Source: Abditibacteriaceae bacterium
GTDB taxonomy: Bacteria > Armatimonadota > Abditibacteriia > Abditibacteriales > Abditibacteriaceae
Assembly (NCBI GenBank): GCA_031372065.1
Contig: JANMKN010000136.1
Coordinates: forward strand, 1-22,203
Direction: 5' to 3'
DNA: 22,203 bases
Part shown: piece by piece, positions 5,730 through 12,416 of the stretch
Numbering within the stretch: position 1 is the stretch's first letter
How the letters are laid out: each line of letters begins with the position of its first letter
Program-made: the position numbers and the translations under genes
Notes under the pieces: model-generated
The model's input: the letters and a program-made list of their open reading frames with translations, nothing else
Database searches by the model: none
What the model was told of the DNA's origin: nothing

Positions 5730-6978
5730 TGGTCTGCTCCCCAAATTTCGAGGCATCTGAAAGATTAGACTCATAGCCTGCAAAGGGCATACAAGGAGTC
5801 GAATCGTGAAAAAGAGCCAGTTTAGCGAAGAGCAGATTGTCCGCTTGCTCCAAGAAGCGGCCCGAGGAGAGAAAAGCCAATCGCAACTCTGCTGCGAGCA
5901 TGGGATCAGCGAGAATACCTTCTACACGAGAATACCTTCTACACATGGAAGCGCAAATATGGCAGTTTGCAATGTCAGGATGTGCGCAGACTCAAGGAAC
6001 TCGAAGCGGAGAATAGCCAATTGAAACGCCTGATGGCCGAGCGTGATCTGGAGATTGACGCCGTGCGCACTCTGTTCCGAAAAAACGGCTGGGCGCTCCC
6101 GAACGCACATCGGGAGCGAGGTCTCTGATGGAGCATGGTGTGACAACACGGCGGTCGTGCTACATTATGAATTTGTCCCCTTCCATGCTCTATTAGCTCC
6201 GGTAGCGGATCGTAATGCGCAACTGCGGCAACGATTGCGTGAGGTGGCCCGTCCCGGTATTGGCTATCGTATGGCTCGTGCTCTGGTGCTGCCGCAATTC
6301 GGTGTTCTTAATCATAAGCGCGTTTATGGCTTATGGAAACAAGAGCGTCTGGCACGCAAGAAAACCAAAAAGAAGCGCCGCACTGGGGCCACAGTGCCCT
6401 TGGCCGCTACTCGTGCCAATCAAGTTTGGTGTTTGGATTTCTGCCACGATGCCTGTCTCAACGGCAGCAAGTTGAAAGTCTTGGCCATCAAAGACGAATA
6501 CACCAGAGAATGTCTGGCTTTGGAAGCGGCCACTCGTCTCAACAGCCACAGCGTGCGTCGGATTCTGCAACGCCTGCAAGAAGAACGAGCAAGAAGAACG
6601 AGGGGTGCCGGAGTATCTGCGCTCAGATAACGGCCCGGAGTTCATCGCTCGGCACCTGAGCATCTGGCTGATGAGTCAGGGCAGTCAATCGCACTTCATC
6701 AAGCCGGGGTCGCTACTGCCCAAAGGGCACCCGCAAAACGGACATGCCGAGTGTTTCATGGCTCGCCTACGAGTTGAGTGTCTAAATGCCGAGGTGTTCC
6801 ACAACTTGGCCGATGCCCGATTGAAACTCAACCTATTCCGTCGTTACTACAATCAGGAGCGACCCCACTCGGCGCTTGGTTATATCCCACCTGCCCAGTT
6901 CGCTGAGGAACTGCGAAACAAGGACAGGTAAACTCAAATCCTAATCTTTCGTTTGTATCGACAAATGGGGGCAGTTCA
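5730..6978 (+). mobile_element. Degenerate IS3-family element
   Basis: IRL TGGTCTGCTCCCCAAATTTCGAGGCATCTGAAAGATTAG from 5730 and IRR CTAATCTTTCGTTTGTATCGACAAATGGGGGCAGTTCA at 6941-6978, with TG...CA ends. The flanks (GAAC / GTTG) show no target duplication. Confidence 0.88.
5806..6931 (+). pseudogene. IS3 transposase orfAB, multiply frameshifted
   Basis: MKKSQFSEEQIV (OrfA), WCLDF, LRSDNGPEF, QNGHAE, YNQERPHSALGY. It is broken by a 17-bp duplication (5911-5944), a 13-bp duplication (6576-6601) and further lesions near 6100-6200. Confidence 0.9.
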
Positions 6979-7282
6979 GTTGTTCCAATGGTTGCAATCG
7001 CAGAATCCGGGACAGTTCCCCGACGGTCAACTGCGCACGCTACAGCGGCGGGTGAAACAATGGCGGCGCGAGCATCTGTATTCCGATGACACACTTTGGA
7101 ACAGCTTTTTCTCCAATGTGGCACGACCTGTGGCGGAAAAGGCAGACCCCCAAATGACGTAGGAGACCCCAAAAACGCGTGCCGCAGGCAGACAGAACTG
7201 CGGCGTTTTAGAAAAAGAAGAAGTATGATTTTAAATGAGGCAACATCGCCCCAGTAGTTCGATTTTTATTTGAGGCAATACG
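6979..7282 (+). mobile_element. 3' remnant of an ISNCY/IS21-like transposase gene with its terminal repeats
   Basis: LFQWLQSQNPGQFPDGQLRTLQRRVKQWR transposase motif, followed by two GATTTT-N3-4-TGAGGCAA repeats (7227-7243, 7261-7278). The exact end is uncertain. Confidence 0.6.
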
Positions 7283-7359
7283 GGTGTCACGACTGTTGGA
7301 TCTACCCTGGTTTGGAGAACATGGGAACGGTAAGTGTCATTAAGGCGGCTTGATTTTTG

Positions 7360-7388
7360 TTGCCCAGGACGGTTTTTTGGTCTATACT
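7360..7388 (+). promoter_or_regulatory. Putative sigma70 promoter of the HTH-vapC operon
   Basis: TTGCCC-17 nt-TATACT, followed by AGGAG before ATG 7418. Confidence 0.5.
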
Positions 7389-7417
7389 TTGATTAACATT
7401 GCTATACAGGAGTAGAC

Positions 7418-7750
7418 ATGGCAGACCGAAGCGAACAATTTTTAACGGTGGAGCAAGCCGCCCGTCGCCTACACGTTCACCCCATGACGGTGCGCCGTCA
7501 CCTGAAAAGTGGCCTTTTGCGCGGGCGCAAGCAGGGCAAGTTATGGCGCGTGGCGGAAAGTGCCTTGAGCGAAACCAACAATTCGCAAATTATACAACCC
7601 ATTACACAACCCACCGTTTCACCTTTGGCACGGGCTTTGGCCCTGGTCGAGGAAAGGGACGCCAAAAGCGGGCCTGTTACGCCTCGCATTTCGGGCGTCA
7701 ATGACGCCGCCACCGAATTGCGACAGATGCGCGAGGAGCGCACGCCTTGA
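7418..7750 (+). CDS. Excisionase-like HTH (HTH_17) protein, putative antitoxin of VapC
   Basis: FLTVEQAARRLHVHPMTVRRHLKSGLLRG..GKLWRV, a VapB-like tail (DAATELRQMREER), and overlap with the toxin start. Confidence 0.75.
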   Translation: MADRSEQFLTVEQAARRLHVHPMTVRRHLKSGLLRGRKQGKLWRVAESALSETNNSQIIQPITQPTVSPLARALALVEERDAKSGPVTPRISGVNDAATELRQMREERTP

Positions 7751-8226
7751 GTGATAGTGATAGAGTTTGCCTTGATGCCAGCGTCGCTTTAGCGTTTGTT
7801 CTGGAGGACGAGCCATTACATGAACAGGCGAAGCAGTTGATCCGGCAATGGGCCGCGCAAAACGTCACGCTTTGCGCTCCGGCGATGTTCGCCTATGAAT
7901 GCGACAGCATCATTCGCTTGCGGGTTTACAAAAAAGCCCTCACTCTCCAAAAAGCAGAAGAAGCAAGGGCCTTTCTCGATGCTTTGGGTATAACCATTGA
8001 ATACGACGCCAGTGACCGCACGCGGGCCTATCAAATCGCCACCGACTACGACCAGCCGCGCGCTTATGATGCCGCTTACGCCGCCCATGCCGAAGCGCGT
8101 GGTGTGGAACTGGTGACCACGGACGCGCCGTTTTTTGAAGCGGTCAATGGCGCGAAGAAGCCCAAGAAAGCCGCCGCCTTAACTTTCGTGAAATTATTGA
8201 CAGCAGGGCCATTGAAGACTCCTTGA
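7747..8226 (+). CDS. vapC: PIN-domain toxin (VapC)
   Basis: VCLDASVAL, acidic residue in YECDS, AYDAAYAAHAE, LVTTD. Confidence 0.88.
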   Translation: MSDSDRVCLDASVALAFVLEDEPLHEQAKQLIRQWAAQNVTLCAPAMFAYECDSIIRLRVYKKALTLQKAEEARAFLDALGITIEYDASDRTRAYQIATDYDQPRAYDAAYAAHAEARGVELVTTDAPFFEAVNGAKKPKKAAALTFVKLLTAGPLKTP

Positions 8227-8329
8227 AGACTCCTTGAGTGGCAATGAAGAATAAAGATGAAGAGGGCACTGGAAACCTCATCAGGGGCACGACAACGAAC
8301 GCTTCATTTTACAGCCACAAGAGAATTCA

Positions 8330-8639
8330 GGCAACGCGGCTTTGAGGCGCAATGGAACCGAGAATACAAAGCGTTGGCGGCGGGTGTCGTTTGCGTCACG
8401 GTGGACGCACGCAACACGTCGCGCATTTGTTCCAAGTGCGGACACTGCGAAAAAGCCAATCGAAAATCTCAAAAGCATTTTAAGTATCTCTCTTGCGGGC
8501 ATGAACAAAATGCCGATGCCAGCGCCTCGCAAAACATCTCGAAGGGGGCGCTTGTCAATGCGCCTCTTGTGGTCTACTCATAGAGCAACGTGAGAGTTGG
8601 AACTACAAGCCCCGCCGCTTGTGGGCATGGGTAATTGAC
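8330..8639 (+). pseudogene. tnpB: tnpB 3' remnant with IS200/IS605 right end
   Basis: EYKA..VDARNTSRICSKCGH..NRKSQ..CGHEQNADASASQNI. It is followed by CAAG (8606-8609), a degenerate hairpin and TGAC (8636-8639). Confidence 0.8.
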
Positions 8640-8836
8640 TGTTTCGCTCCCAAAATAAAGTTTACCTAAAGAGTAAGTTTTTTTATAAATAGCCCTTGTA
8701 TAATATTACCAGTAGTTGAAAAAAAATGACGCAGAAAAATGCGGTCAAGTTGGGTTCGAGTTAGAGCGGGAAAAATCAGTGCAAAAAAGGGCTAAAAAAG
8801 GCCCTTAAAAGCGGTTAATACTGATTCTAAGAGCGC

Positions 8837-9025
8837 GGAATTAAAGGAATTAAATTCACGCTTTCTCGTTCAAAACGGCTATTTAATTCACGCAAACTTT
8901 GACAAACTTTGACAAACTTTGACAAAAGGCCCGAATTAATTTTTTGCGCAAAATTGGTGCGCAAAATTGGTGCGTAAAAGGGCGCGTAAAACAGGGCAAA
9001 AAGCGGCTCAAAACGGCCTAAAAAA
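8837..9025. repeat. Cluster of short tandem repeats and A-tracts
   Basis: GGAATTAAA x2 (8837), CAAACTTTGA x3 (8893), TGCGCAAAATTGG x2 (8945), then A4-6 tracts about every 10-12 nt. Confidence 0.8.
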
Positions 9026-9592
9026 CACGGTTGCAAGGGGTTTGAAAATGGAGTGAAGCGGTGCCGTTCACAGCGCCGGGGCGCCGCTATAAAACGGGGT
9101 TCAAGAATGTCACAAAAAGCCAAGGAAAACGGAAATAGAAATAGGCGCGTGGGTAGGGCACTGCGGCAAGAGAGGCGGCGTGGAGGGAGCGTGCAATGTA
9201 TTCCGTTTTCTCCGGTGACCCCATAACGGGCGTTTCGGTGACGTAAGCGGGAAACGTGGCGCGCTAAATACTTTCCAAGTCACTTGGATTTTCACAGGGA
9301 GAGACAAACCGTCAAATACCATCACCAACAAGCGGTGAGGCTTGTACTTCCAAGTTCGGCAATGCTTTGCGGACGGAGGGCAATAGGCCAATTGACGGTG
9401 GCCCTGCCTCTGTAGGCATTGCCCGCAGAAGACACTGATTTCTCAGTGACGTTTCAGAATTTTACGCAGCAAAACGTCATTGAGTTGCTGCAACCTGATA
9501 TTCCGACTTGTCGAGGTGCGACTGCACAAACTGTTGCTTTCTTGCGAAAGTGCCTTGCGTGCAAGTCAAATTATAACCGAACTCTGAGGCAA

Positions 9593-9661
9593 AGTCGTCC
9601 CAAGGACGACACCTCAATTCCTCCCCACGGACAAGCCGTGGAGTATCCTTGAGGTATTTTT
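9593..9661 (-). mobile_element. Orphan IS200/IS605 left end abutting the DUF1552 start codon
   Basis: Minus strand: TCAT | AAAAATACCTCAAG GATA CTCCACGG-CTTGT-CCGTGGGG AGGAATTGAGGT, then a GTCGTCC-TTG-GGACGAC hairpin. This is the same two-hairpin layout as the left end at 12321-12389. Confidence 0.65.
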
Positions 9662-10939
9662 ATGAACAGGCACTGCGCGCCGAAACTTACGCGCCGTCAT
9701 TTTATTCGCTCGACCTCGGCGCTGTTGGCTTTGCCGTGGCTCGAAAGCATAGCCGGCGCGCAAGGTGCGCCACCGCCGCGCCGCATCGTCAACATCTGCA
9801 CTGCCTTTGGTTTGTATGGCCCGTCGTTTTTTCCGGAAGCGTCGGGGCGCGACTATGCGCCCAGCGAATACTTACAAATCCTCGACGGCTTGCGCCAGCA
9901 TTACACGGTATTTTCGGGTATTTCGCATCCCGATATCGGCGGCGACCACGCTTCGGAAGCGTGTTTTCTCACGACGGCCAAGCACCCCACCCAGAGCGGG
10001 TTTCGCAACAGCGTTTCGCTGGATTATCTGGCCGCCAAGCACGTGGCCGGCGCCACGCGCTTTCCTCTGCTAACACTTTCTACACTGGACGATAGTCCTC
10101 TGACGCACGCGCCCAGCGGCGCCGGGATTCCTGCCCTGAGCAAGCCGTCCGATATCTATGCCCGCCTGTTTTTGGCGGGCAATAAAAACGACGTTGACCG
10201 CGAACTGGCCCGCCTCAAGCGCGGCCAGAGCGTGCTGGACAACATGGGATCAAGGTTTAGCGAACTCAACAAAACTCTCAGCCACAGCGACCAGCAGCAG
10301 GTAAGCGACTACACCGACGCCGTGCGCGAGATGGAAAAACAGCTTCAGGCCGACGAGGCGTGGGTGAACCGTCCGAAGCCGAAAGTGGATGAGCCGCAAC
10401 CCAACGAAAATTATCCCAGCCCGTTTTCGGATCGCAGCGACAGCATAGGCCGCGCCAAGGTGCTGCTCAATCTCACCAAGCTGGCACTGCAAACCGATTC
10501 CACGCGTGTGGTAACGCTGTTTATTCGCGGCATGGATCTCACGCCACCGATTCCAGGCATCACCGAGAACCATCACGGTCTTACGCATCACGGGCGCAAT
10601 CCGGCCAAAATCGAACAACTACGCATCGTCGAACGCTCCGAAGTGACGGCTTTTCGCGATTTTCTGGTGGCGATGCGCGATACAAGGGAAGGCGGTGCCA
10701 GCCTGCTGGACAGCACGCAGGTGCTTATTGGTAGCAATCTCGGTGATGCCAGCGGCCACGGCACCTCCAACCTGCCGATTCTGCTGGCGGGTGGCGGCTA
10801 CAAACATGGCCAGCACATTGCCGGCGACCCGAAGGACAACACGCCGCTGGGCAAGTTGTTCGTTAGCATGTTGCAACGCTTCGGCGCCGAAACAGACGCC
10901 TTCGGTTCGGGCGCCGGAACGATTACAGGACTGGCTTGA
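9662..10939 (+). CDS. DUF1552 family protein
   Basis: LTRRHFIR..LALPWLES N-terminus, SVSLDYLAA, SVLD, LALQTDSTRVVT, HHGLTHHG, NLPILLAGG. Confidence 0.88.
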   Translation: MNRHCAPKLTRRHFIRSTSALLALPWLESIAGAQGAPPPRRIVNICTAFGLYGPSFFPEASGRDYAPSEYLQILDGLRQHYTVFSGISHPDIGGDHASEACFLTTAKHPTQSGFRNSVSLDYLAAKHVAGATRFPLLTLSTLDDSPLTHAPSGAGIPALSKPSDIYARLFLAGNKNDVDRELARLKRGQSVLDNMGSRFSELNKTLSHSDQQQVSDYTDAVREMEKQLQADEAWVNRPKPKVDEPQPNENYPSPFSDRSDSIGRAKVLLNLTKLALQTDSTRVVTLFIRGMDLTPPIPGITENHHGLTHHGRNPAKIEQLRIVERSEVTAFRDFLVAMRDTREGGASLLDSTQVLIGSNLGDASGHGTSNLPILLAGGGYKHGQHIAGDPKDNTPLGKLFVSMLQRFGAETDAFGSGAGTITGLA

Positions 10940-11100
10940 CACTCCGCACCGCTAAAGCGGCGGGATTCTCGCTTCAACCAGAATTGCTTGCCGTAGCAAG
11001 TCTGACATTCTGTCCACGAGCATTTTTCTTTTCCGAGTGCCCCTCGGCAAAGTTTCTAAAGGCTTCGTTCAAGATGTTTTGAGCCGCGTTATGGTCACGA
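10916..11100 (-). ncRNA. Predicted omegaRNA (reRNA) of this TnpB; guide about GCCAGTCCTGTAATCGTTCC
   Basis: Established TnpB architecture: the scaffold overlaps the tnpB 3' end and right end, and the guide is the flank beyond TCAA. The 5' boundary is approximate. Confidence 0.6.
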
Positions 11101-12155
11101 TTGTGAGTTACGCCACAATCACACAACCAAACTCTATCCGACAGTGTGAGCGCATCGTTTATCGCGCCACAGCATCGGCACATCTTGGAACTGGGAAACC
11201 ATCGGCTTATCACAACCAGATGCCGCCGGTTCCAACTGCATTTGTATTCCAACTGGCGGCGCAATTCGCCCAACGAGGCATCAAGAACGCTTTTACTGAG
11301 ACGCTTGTTTTTCGCAATCCCTTTGACGTTCAAATTTTCGATGCCGATAAAGTCGAATCGCTGCACCAAATCGGAAGTCGTCTTATGCACAAAATCAGCA
11401 CGGCTATTGGCAACCTTGCGATGCACTTTCGCCACGCGCAATTTAGCATCGTCACGGCGATTACTACCCGCCTTGCGCCGTGCCAGAACTCGTTGCGCCT
11501 TACCCAATTTCTTTTCGAGTTTGCGAAACAAGCGCGGCGCGGGCGTGCTTTCGCCGTTCGACAAGAAAACAAAATCCTTCAATCCGGCATCCACGCCGAT
11601 AGGATTCTCTGGCGGCGCAACAGCCGTATCCGGCATTTCAAACTCTGCCGTGAGTGCCACAAACCAGTCACCGCAAGCATCGCGCTTAAATGTTGCGCTC
11701 TTAGTTTCGCCTTCAATTTCTTGCGATTGGCGAATGCGAATCCACCCGATTTTTGGGCAATAGACTTTGCTCCCGCCCAAAGGGCACCCGTCAACTTTCA
11801 CCCGCTGCGGAATGCGAAACGCGAAGTGTCCGGCTTTGCGGCTTTTGAACTTTGGAAACTTGCCGCGTTTGGCAAAGAAACTTTGAAAGGCTTTGTCCAC
11901 ATCTTTCAACGCCTGTTGCAAAAGCTGCGAATCCGCCTCTTGGAGCCACAAGCGGTCTTCCTGCTTTTTAAGTTGCGTCAACTCTTGCGACAGTTGCGCT
12001 GCGGGAATTGTCTTGCCGTTGGCTTTGTAGAACTCGTTGCGCCTTGCCAGCGCCCAGTTGCAAACGAAACGACGCGCACCCGCAAGCTGATACAGCTTTT
12101 GAGTTTGTTCGGCGTTCGGTTCCAATTTAAAGCGATAGGCACGGCGCAGTTTCAT
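10974..12155 (-). CDS. tnpB: RNA-guided endonuclease TnpB
   Basis: AYRFKLEPN HTH, RuvC-I GVDAG, RuvC-II IENL, zinc finger CRCC..CDC and RuvC-III NRDHNAAQNI. The D-E-D triad is intact. Confidence 0.95.
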   Translation of the reverse strand: MKLRRAYRFKLEPNAEQTQKLYQLAGARRFVCNWALARRNEFYKANGKTIPAAQLSQELTQLKKQEDRLWLQEADSQLLQQALKDVDKAFQSFFAKRGKFPKFKSRKAGHFAFRIPQRVKVDGCPLGGSKVYCPKIGWIRIRQSQEIEGETKSATFKRDACGDWFVALTAEFEMPDTAVAPPENPIGVDAGLKDFVFLSNGESTPAPRLFRKLEKKLGKAQRVLARRKAGSNRRDDAKLRVAKVHRKVANSRADFVHKTTSDLVQRFDFIGIENLNVKGIAKNKRLSKSVLDASLGELRRQLEYKCSWNRRHLVVISRWFPSSKMCRCCGAINDALTLSDRVWLCDCGVTHNRDHNAAQNILNEAFRNFAEGHSEKKNARGQNVRLATASNSG

Positions 12156-12286
12156 TTTGCTTTCTTCGATTCTTTACGAATCAGGAACTCCAACATACTT
12201 GCTTGGCTGAGTCCATTTTTCTCAGCCAGTTCTTTGAGCAGGCGGTTCGCCTCTTCGCTCAAACGAAAACTTGTTGCCTTTTTCAT
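12152..12286 (-). CDS. 44-aa ribbon-helix-helix (CopG-like) protein, not in the ORF track
   Basis: MKKATSFRLSEEANRLLKELAEKNGLSQASMLEFLIRKESKKAK. Its stop overlaps the tnpB start (ATGA). TACACT lies 7 nt before the ATG, suggesting a leaderless transcript. Confidence 0.8.
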   Translation of the reverse strand: MKKATSFRLSEEANRLLKELAEKNGLSQASMLEFLIRKESKKAK

Positions 12287-12416
12287 AAGGCTTAGTGTAG
12301 CGCAATACGCGGCACACTACAGCCCGTCCTGAAAGGACGGCGGGCTATCCATCCCCCCGCTAAAGCGGGAGGCTTTCCGCCCGTTGTGTGTAACTTCGCT
12401 CCATTTCCCCACCACA

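Follow-up and report, generated by a model that had tools for sequence, protein, structure and literature searches.

How does the same short sequence come to lie inside two unrelated mobile genes? The question is raised by a 22,203-nt stretch of DNA (hereafter the window), contig C323 of an Abditibacteriaceae genome that is available as a 6.14-Mb, metagenome-type draft assembly of 410 contigs (53% G+C, 94% complete). Within the window, the 16-nt sequence GCCCAAAGGGCACCCG occurs exactly twice, at 6718-6733 and 11775-11790, both times on the forward strand, once in the orfB gene of an IS3 element and once in a tnpB gene; it has no match in 100 dinucleotide-preserving shuffles of the window, even when up to two mismatches are allowed. 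A first-pass annotation of the window had drawn attention to this identical 16-mer and had proposed that a host process writes a fixed sequence into DNA. The observation is confirmed, and the proposal is supported by the further copies and the empty alleles described below. Both stretches are copies of an 18-nt hairpin repeat of the Abditibacteriaceae, C-Y-GCCC-ARA-GGGC-R-CCCG, which has been put into many unrelated places.

Sequence, ends and distribution of an 18-nt hairpin repeat

Across the genome the 16-mer is present in 17 exact copies with unrelated flanks, together with 25 further copies that carry one mismatch and 34 that carry two, while a longer 18-mer, CTGCCCARAGGGCRCCCG, is present in 38 copies, against 0 for its reversed control. 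The annotation's prediction of additional genomic copies was thus borne out. When one mismatch is allowed to any of the four variants GCCCA[A/G]AGGGC[A/G]CCCG, 66 genomic copies are found, and all four A/G combinations occur (in 18, 16, 14 and 3 copies).

The ends of the repeat were determined from 26 de-duplicated contexts, which remained after the removal of copies with common outer flanks. In these, conservation begins at position -2 (C in 24/26), continues at -1 (T in 18, C in 8) and extends to the final G. Position -3 is a weak pyrimidine, nothing farther out is conserved, and the information content falls from >1.1 bits to <0.6 at -3 and +16. These borders define a unit of 18 nt, C-Y-GCCC-ARA-GGGC-R-CCCG (19 nt if the weak Y is included), rather than the approximately 15 nt that had been read from the window. 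The left side is mostly CTG, not CCG (the base before GCCC being T in 18 contexts and C in 8). The CCCG direct repeat that had been described as bounding the tnpB copy is therefore present in the sequence but is peculiar to that copy, since most copies begin with CTG.

As single-stranded DNA, the 19-base form CCTGCCCAAAGGGCACCCG folds into a hairpin with a 5-bp stem and a 3-nt loop (-4.1 kcal/mol; 5/200 shuffles fold equally well), so that the hairpin core described from the window is real, though modest. The unit belongs to a wider family, YGCCC-N(3-24)-GGGCRCCCG, of which there are 93 genomic copies against 1 for the reversed pattern. The longer relatives measure 20-26 nt and have the same outer parts, their stems being lengthened by complementary bases, with an inner GCAAGC in 7 copies, GCAGTAAGC in 4 and ACAAGT in 1. 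As read from its sequence, the 18-nt unit contains a stop codon in none of the six frames, so that a gene stays open whenever a copy lengthens it by a net 15 nt.

The distribution of the unit was determined by searching for CTGCCCARAGGGCRCCCG in 41 genomes, in all of which the reversed control gave 0 matches. The 18-nt unit is dispersed and confined to one bacterial family. It is present in 11/41 genomes, all of them Abditibacteriaceae: the genome studied here (38 copies), three congeners (112, 51 and 223 copies) and seven genomes from three other genera of the family (1-15 copies). There are 0 copies in the other 14 genomes of the family and in the 16 genomes from outside it. The assignment of the genome studied here to this family agrees with the names of proteins closely related to its glutamyl-tRNA synthetase.

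Filled and empty sites

Comparison of filled and empty sites reveals a unit with fixed ends, whose presence or absence distinguishes near-identical alleles and which brings a net gain of 13-15 nt, replaces a few target bases, leaves no duplication and recurs at one site in tnpB. The first of the two copies in the window (CTGCCCAAAGGGCACCCG, 6716..6733, + strand) lies in frame in the IS3 orfB gene, where it is read as L-P-K-G-H-P and, together with a preceding CTA, replaces the P-W codons of the family. The window's orfB is divided between an N-terminal fragment (6043..6630, +; HTH_21 and rve) and, in a different frame, the C-terminal fragment that hosts the copy (6605..6931, +), in which rve_3 spans 68 residues over 63 profile positions, that is, 5 extra. 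This fragment reads KPGSLLPKGHPQNG, whereas 38/40 of the closest homologues read KPGSPW-----QNG; two others (90% and 82% identical) read KPGSLLPKGRPQNG, which, judged from the residues, would be the insert with the G variant at R. Within a cluster at >=90% identity around one of these two, 7 members are filled and 2 are empty (267 vs 262 residues), and 1 is a fragment that does not include the region. At the junction, the conserved P-W (6 nt) has given way to L-L-P-K-G-H-P (21 nt), in agreement with the earlier remark that this junction was the less clean of the two. The IS3 copy in the window is broken by a frame shift near 6605-6630 and, on the evidence of its sequence, is probably dead; intact 267-aa relatives with the same five-codon insert exist elsewhere. 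There is no second copy of this IS3 in the genome, and scans of genome and metagenome contigs for the DNA of close relatives gave only <=58% identity, with one 55% relative among the 41 genomes, so that the IS3 empty allele is known at the protein level only.

The second copy (CCGCCCAAAGGGCACCCG, with the C variant at -1; 11773..11790, +) is antisense to an intact tnpB gene of 393 aa (10974..12155, - strand), which has OrfB_IS605, Cas12f1-like_TNB and HTH_OrfB_IS605 domains and matches the NCBIfam model guided_TnpB with 339 bits (cut-off 100). The - strand of the unit reads G-C-P-L-G, residues 123-127 of TnpB, in a protein stretch that reads RVKVDGCPLGGSKVY. A paralog on contig C61 (about 9121-10620), 75% identical in nucleotides over 1379 nt, has a single 15-nt gap exactly at 11775-11789, the very bases that had been delimited as the insert. 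In an alignment of 41 TnpB homologues, 36 are without an insert at this site; together with the IS3 figures (38/40), this substantiates the claim that five codons have been added in both genes. GCPLG is found in the window's TnpB and in one 88% relative. Two homologues have GCPRSG, which, as judged from the residues, is the expected coding of a long-stem form of the hairpin on that strand, and one has a different G+C-rich insert of six residues (another palindrome). In a quick maximum-likelihood tree with a midpoint root, for which a careful search is unfinished, these three kinds of insert fall in three separate clades (SH-aLRT 98, 100 and 99), each beside empty relatives. This separation points to repeated hits, and comparison of the sequences suggests that this one tnpB codon site has most likely been hit at least three times.

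Contigs from two further samples bridge the tnpB copy without difference (the filled allele), and one contig that diverges at 11768 represents the C61-type paralog; an empty allele of the window's own tnpB was not seen among the assembled contigs, which cannot prove its absence. The annotation had held that its reading would be undermined if close homologues from other taxa already carried the added residues. Some do (P0001, P0002, P0135), from which it follows that the insertions in the window predate this genome's copies of the two genes, but most homologues are without the insert. The empty alleles that it had predicted were obtained at high identity for IS3 and tnpB, and also for a housekeeping gene.

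That gene codes for glutamyl-tRNA synthetase (GluRS; C277), where the residues AQRAP contributed by the unit separate the HIGH-motif helix from RIEDTD. In the DNA, CAY-AGC-GGC-GGC has become CAT-TCTGCCCAGAGGGCACCC-GGC-GGC, with 18 nt in place of 3. All orthologues from related genomes (12/12), including two congeners, are without the insert; among 118 GluRS homologues that match the pattern, 113 are of standard length, 4 are longer by five residues and 1 by four; and a cluster at >=90% identity contains both filled and empty forms. One homologue (P0260, 66% identical, from a more distant relative) has five extra residues, AQQTP, at the place of AQRAP, while its nearer relatives have none; this may be either a second hit at the GluRS site or a worn copy. 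In a MiaB/RimO-like radical-SAM gene (C169), the unit lies in the linker between the UPF0004 and radical-SAM domains; the site is filled in G000 and in the congener G001, where the insert is in a different reading frame after small compensating indels, and is empty in the congeners G002 and G003. Homologues of folP and ribE carry further genic copies in their C-terminal tails, as does a pyruvyl-transferase gene in its heptamer-rich linker. As a whole, copies of the unit avoid long frames, with 15/66 lying in a spanning frame of >=300 aa, compared with 71% of random places.

Beyond these genes, paralogous empty sites were found in the genome's other repeat families for 17/66 copies, with gaps of 13-15 nt. 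Nearly all of these pairs, like GluRS and IS3, have the complete 18-19-nt unit at the filled site and have lost about 2-7 bases of the empty sequence. No target duplication was seen in the comparisons of filled and empty sites. The clean insertion with duplication of CCCG that had been suggested for tnpB thus gives way to a replacement of about 3-6 target bases, with a net gain of 13-15 nt. At the position of the unit's left end, CCT or CCTGC is already present in about half of the empty sites, as in tnpB (TCCTGC), the C27 family (CCTGC|G, which gains exactly 13 nt) and the C51 family (CCTGCC), and several hold CG at the right junction, where GluRS and MiaB have the CG in common with the unit. 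No fixed target tetra- or pentanucleotide was found in the 26 contexts.

Many copies of the unit lie in or beside other repeats. Tandem heptamers adjoin 6/66 copies compared with 0.28% of random places (and 0/66 at lags of 5, 6, 8 or 9), and hairpins of the form TGTCATYCTGA...GAAGRATC, which are also found to enclose the unit in two other genera, enclose 6/66 copies compared with 0.63% of random places. The unit is also found in one arm of 'cccctcaccc...ggggagagg' palindromes, where a second small hairpin, CCCGC-(T)AA(A)-GCGGG-TTCCCGG (9 copies vs 0 for the reversed control), can take the same site. Copies without a partner on the opposite strand within 400 nt make up 59/66, and the pairs that do exist (C224, C50, C243) are the two arms of larger repeats. 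A position at the tip of a larger hairpin was rejected as a rule, the signal being too weak (flanking stems reach >=5 bp in 4/65 copies, compared with 1.9% for re-paired flanks, and never >=6 bp). The DNA of orthologous intergenic sites is too different for comparison between G000 and either G003 or G002, and the three alignable pairs have no clean junctions; in these, whole hairpins or heptamer arrays have been exchanged.

With regard to these neighbouring repeats, the CCCGC...GCGGG hairpin forms a genome-wide family (for example at C16:1532-1772, C311:1027-1254 and C327:8588-8655). Tandem heptamer arrays (GAATGCG, GACCACT, AAAACTC and others; C293:18520-18680, C405:6380-6500, C58:4780-4860, C244:5050-5140) lie partly within reading frames, as in the pyruvyl-transferase linker and the ribE tail, and the orthologous spacer of a congener (L243) has a different heptamer array at the same place.

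The tnpB element of the window has a further site of interest at its upstream end (12340..12375, +), which is empty here and carries a copy of the unit (TATCTGCCCAAAGGGCACCCTCC) in the C61 paralog. The filled and empty states are thus reversed relative to the site within tnpB; the unit copies on C61 are at 931 and 10522. This same end of the window's element contains a CCCGCTAAAGCGGG hairpin (12355-12372), which is related to the CCCGC...GCGGG family. Overlapping the start of tnpB with its stop codon (ATGA) is a ribbon-helix-helix-like open reading frame of 44 aa (12152..12286, -), for which the RHH_1 score of 20.3 bits falls just below the cut-off of 20.5, while RepB-RCR_reg scores 21.1 against a cut-off of 21. 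It belongs to the tnpB element rather than to the hairpin unit and is nearly identical in the C61 paralog. Between the two paralogs, conservation is much higher in this frame and the sequence around it than in tnpB (about 75% overall), and there is no tnpA beside the window's tnpB.

How the unit may spread

We propose, as an explanation whose chances we regard as evenly poised, that the 18-nt unit spreads as a non-autonomous mini-element: a DNA enzyme specific for hairpins, whose gene lies elsewhere in the genome, would cut and paste it in trans. At fixed positions, a defined fragment or its single-stranded hairpin form would be excised or copied. The agent would be a nuclease or transposase that recognises sequence as well as structure, like those that act on the hairpins of repetitive extragenic palindromic (REP) sequences (Y1/HUH) or on NTS/SRM hairpins (Ssn GIY-YIG). 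The fragment would then be joined into the target with the loss of about 3-6 bases, and within genes only those copies with a net gain of 15 nt would survive, adding five residues to a loop or linker. An enzyme acting in trans is favoured by the identity of the borders in 26 contexts, by the conservation of the sequence across genera with two free positions and by the reuse of sites. Candidate classes are encoded in the genome, namely Y1_Tnp proteins, including a RAYT, and a small GIY-YIG protein, and hairpin-specific action has been described for RAYT on REP (PMC3733652) and for Ssn on NTS (PMC11893778; these and the other PMC sources are cited from excerpts).

A search of the genome for the agent has supplied points against this proposal. 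Of the seven Y1_Tnp matches in the genome, one (C343:2581-3117; locus L006, 1447-1986) is a bona fide RAYT (NF047646, 102.6 bits vs a cut-off of 80). Long palindromes of its own, of the GTAG type, lie on either side of it (L006 1330-1430 and 2010-2100), and the unit is found near it only nested in one arm of the downstream palindrome. RAYT genes are present in 8/41 genomes, 3/11 that bear the motif and 5/30 that are free of it, and the 18-nt unit is found at none of 5 orthologous RAYT loci. Y1_Tnp genes as a class occur in 35/41 genomes and so cannot discriminate, and scans of the six other Y1_Tnp loci showed no hairpin of a similar kind next to them. At C373:15741-15974 the genome has a small GIY-YIG gene of the single-domain, Ssn-like type, which is truncated where the contig ends. 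An SRM-like hairpin, TGTCATTCTGA...GAAGAATC, precedes it, the gene and hairpin together lying at C373:15683-15974 (locus L253 1428-1721). Such genes are present in 5/11 motif-bearing genomes vs 7/30 motif-free ones, and none of six small GIY-YIG loci has the 18-nt unit, which makes this protein a candidate agent at most. No enzyme is linked to the unit.

The manner of insertion is a further difficulty. Peel-and-paste transposition of the IS200/IS605 type leaves no seam and targets a position next to a fixed tetra- or pentanucleotide, and the loss of target bases and the variable net length (13-15 nt) do not fit it. Single-strand transposons reportedly prefer one replication strand, unlike the unit, which has no orientation bias with respect to local GC skew (oriented skew being positive for 27 and negative for 27 of 54 single copies). 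In addition, the pre-existence of the unit's ends at about half of the empty sites would also fit copying guided by microhomology, without a dedicated enzyme.

Several other routes were tried and rejected. A co-occurring reverse transcriptase, which had been suggested as something to look for, was not found: RVT_1 has no match in the 94%-complete assembly, and a route via reverse transcription was rejected on this ground, as was capture by Ku-dependent end joining, there being no Ku match in the assembly. The annotation had seen no writer enzyme in the window, and the agent was not found genome-wide either, with RVT_1, Y1/RAYT, GIY-YIG and Ku examined. The one CRISPR array of the genome (C183:27490-27980) has a repeat of an unrelated type; the array has a 61-nt period, and its repeat contains GTGTTCCCCGCAGGCGCGGGGATGAACCG and is presumably of type I-E. 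With respect to the candidate loci themselves, we note that CCTGCCC, the left half of the unit, stands directly before the start codon of the C343 RAYT, and that TGTCAT[TC]C[TC]GA occurs at 49 places in the genome, about 35 of which are, by eye, hairpins like TGTCATTCTGA...GAAGAATC, with a resemblance to the NTS/SRM consensus in GTCATTC...GAATC.

The main rival, which we consider possible though less than probable, does away with the enzyme. Guided by microhomology of 2-6 nt, a strand being synthesised in replication or repair would leave its template, copy the hairpin from another site and return, or a short patch would be converted from such a copy; a few target bases would be overwritten each time and 13-15 nt gained. 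This accounts well for the replacement of a few target bases and for the variation in net length (13-15 nt), for empty sites that often already hold the unit's ends (tnpB, C27, C51, GluRS and MiaB) and for the lack of target duplication, strand bias and a linked enzyme. It accounts less well for the identical borders in 26 contexts, since switches at chance microhomologies should often drag variable donor flanks along with them. The conservation of 18 nt across genera, with two variable positions, would be easier to understand if a protein reads them, and the repeated hits at one tnpB codon in three clades would call for a strong site preference. The microhomology counts on which template switching leans, moreover, lack a formal null and are inflated by the freedom of alignment near gaps.

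The remaining alternatives are harder to reconcile with the filled and empty sites. That the unit is a host-selected functional site, either protein-binding or an RNA hairpin for transcript stability, carried in larger repeats and present in genes only incidentally, would agree with its mostly intergenic position (15/66 in a frame of >=300 aa vs 71% for random places), with some copies at the tip of terminator-like hairpins (G002 locus L237), with conservation across genera and with a U-A to U-G-like variation at R that would keep the RNA pair. As it leaves unexplained how the unit arrived in unrelated unique sequence (GluRS, MiaB, and the coding sequences of IS3 and tnpB), with empty alleles at >=90% identity, and why copy number differs six-fold among congeners, we consider it improbable as a complete account, though a function acquired after insertion could coexist with mobility. 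Very improbable, in our judgement, is an origin as the footprint or deletion remnant of a larger transposon with ends GCCC.../...GGGC, the termini of which were joined upon excision. The core (GCCC-ARA-GGGC) is indeed palindromic, like two joined inverted termini, and extended-stem forms exist; yet the assembly contains 0 candidates of 40-4000 nt bounded by YTGCCC...GGGCRCCCG with a terminal inverted repeat of >=9 bp, the fifth base of the short form is A as opposed to G in the long forms, so that the terminus is not common to them, and 17 copies are identical over 16 nt where a footprint should vary by site. A repeated parent element might nonetheless have gone unassembled, the draft being in 410 contigs. 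The same draft, metagenome-type character of the assembly in 410 contigs invites the suspicion of an artefact of assembly or sequencing (a linker or chimeric reads), to which we attach practically no weight: the unit is found with natural A/G variants in 10 other genomes of the family, proteins drawn from NCBI, JGI, ENA and Logan carry the insert, the tnpB copy is bridged without change by contigs from two additional samples, and the reading frames are kept open.

Returning to a hairpin-specific enzyme acting in trans, a bolder version of this proposal would make the 18-nt cassette a self-defined mobile unit, the smallest known, whose enzyme would cut it at set positions and insert it at preferred sites, a few target bases being lost in the process. 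Such an enzyme would be a natural 'short-patch DNA writer' through which five codons have repeatedly been added to the genes for proteins such as the RNA-guided nuclease TnpB and an essential aminoacyl-tRNA synthetase. We regard this version as doubtful; should an enzyme for writing a fixed 18-nt cassette exist, its use as a tool would be of interest.

Relation to known small repeats

The unit is a very small hairpin dispersed repeat of the REP/SDR type (SDR, small dispersed repeat), in a phylum for which, as far as the literature was searched, none had been described before. Judged by titles and abstract openings, the papers that the searches brought up include none on repeats of Abditibacteria or on such an 18-nt element. 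To our knowledge, how very small dispersed repeats move has been unsettled since their 2008 description in cyanobacteria, and the same is true of REPs that have no dedicated transposase. REPs of the CGTC type, for example, are without one according to the excerpt of PMC3733652. In this respect the lineage offers unusually clean material for studying how small repeats move, with sharp ends and copy numbers that range among congeners from 38 to 223. Filled and empty alleles at >=90% identity in single-copy essential genes, together with a tnpB site that has most likely been hit three times independently, make the question of movement testable. As the unit also demonstrates, a repeat can give rise to indels of five codons, both in core proteins (GluRS, MiaB) and in transposase or TnpB genes, which matters for annotation and for the use of indels as phylogenetic characters.

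Amongst systems with which the unit might be compared, derivatives of IS200/IS605 likewise have a small hairpin with flanking bases as their substrate, and Y1 genes are present here (7 matches). The unit differs from them in having no fixed target tetranucleotide, no strand bias and no similar hairpin at six Y1_Tnp loci, and in the loss of target bases. Nor does it resemble a miniature inverted-repeat transposable element (MITE), since there is no target duplication, target bases are lost and no longer element with the same ends was found in the assembly.

Ssn proteins are small single-domain GIY-YIG nucleases that cut single-stranded DNA beside oriented NTS/SRM hairpin repeats, which usually flank ssn (PMC11893778). 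Like the unit, these repeats are oriented hairpins with a conserved non-palindromic flank, and NTS is found in hundreds of copies (PMC11893778); the hairpin of the C373 GIY-YIG gene has GTCATTC...GAATC in common with the NTS consensus given there. According to the discussion in that paper, however, genes seldom contain NTS, and what is demonstrated for Ssn is cutting, not transposition. The unit is absent from the six GIY-YIG loci, and the distribution of the gene follows it only weakly (5/11 vs 7/30).

With REPs and REPINs the unit shares a short palindrome with unpaired conserved tails and species-specific copy numbers (PMC3116915, PMC3733652). Like REPs it is mostly intergenic, sometimes in inverted pairs, and its copy number is high (66 copies). 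REPs within genes have also been described, even at the same recB site in two Xanthomonas species (PMC3733652). A REP is there defined as a palindromic stem-loop of 20-40 bp with a GTAG or CGTC tag (PMC3733652), whereas the unit is 18 nt long (19 with the weak Y), with a 4-5-bp stem and a 3-nt loop, and its ends are CYG...CCCG (CGGG...CRG on the other strand), with neither GTAG nor CGTC. REPINs are inverted doublets at fixed spacing (PMC3116915), compared with 59/66 unpaired copies of the unit. The GTAG/CTAC palindromes that flank the C343 RAYT form a 'TIRtron'-like layout, as described in PMC3733652. A REPtron arrangement does not extend to the unit, the RAYT being flanked by these other palindromes and its presence across genomes not following that of the unit.

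In its effect on proteins, the unit parallels the Rickettsia palindromic elements (RPEs), which are far longer, at about 100-150 bp, and belong to an obligate intracellular lineage. These are palindromes that lie in frame in functional genes and add a peptide segment (PMC3733652). The unit is likewise an in-frame palindromic insert in genes, though it adds just five codons.

The small dispersed repeats SDR1-8 of Nostocaceae cyanobacteria, reportedly described by Elhai et al. in 2008, are said to be hairpin-forming and 21-27 nt long. By their descriptions they are, like the unit, very short hairpin units with fixed ends, present in tens to hundreds of copies and with presence/absence alleles; they are also nested in other repeats, placed beside tandem heptamers, occasionally found in genes and without a known enzyme. 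The likeness to the very small dispersed repeats of cyanobacteria that had been suggested from the window alone fits these observations, the unit being itself nested in other repeats and enriched beside tandem heptamers. The two differ in host phylum (Abditibacteriaceae, not a cyanobacterium) and slightly in length, the unit's 18-19 nt being just below the 21-27 nt of the SDRs. With regard to site preference, SDR5 lies in the HIP1 octamer (PMC5861425), while the unit recurs at one tnpB codon site in three clades. According to the excerpt of PMC5861425, no SDR was found outside the Nostocaceae among the HIP1-rich cyanobacteria examined there; further background on SDRs is given in PMC3116915 and PMC2884548. 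The behaviour of the unit resembles that of the SDRs of Nostocaceae, of REPs within genes and, in its effect on proteins, of the Rickettsia palindromic elements.

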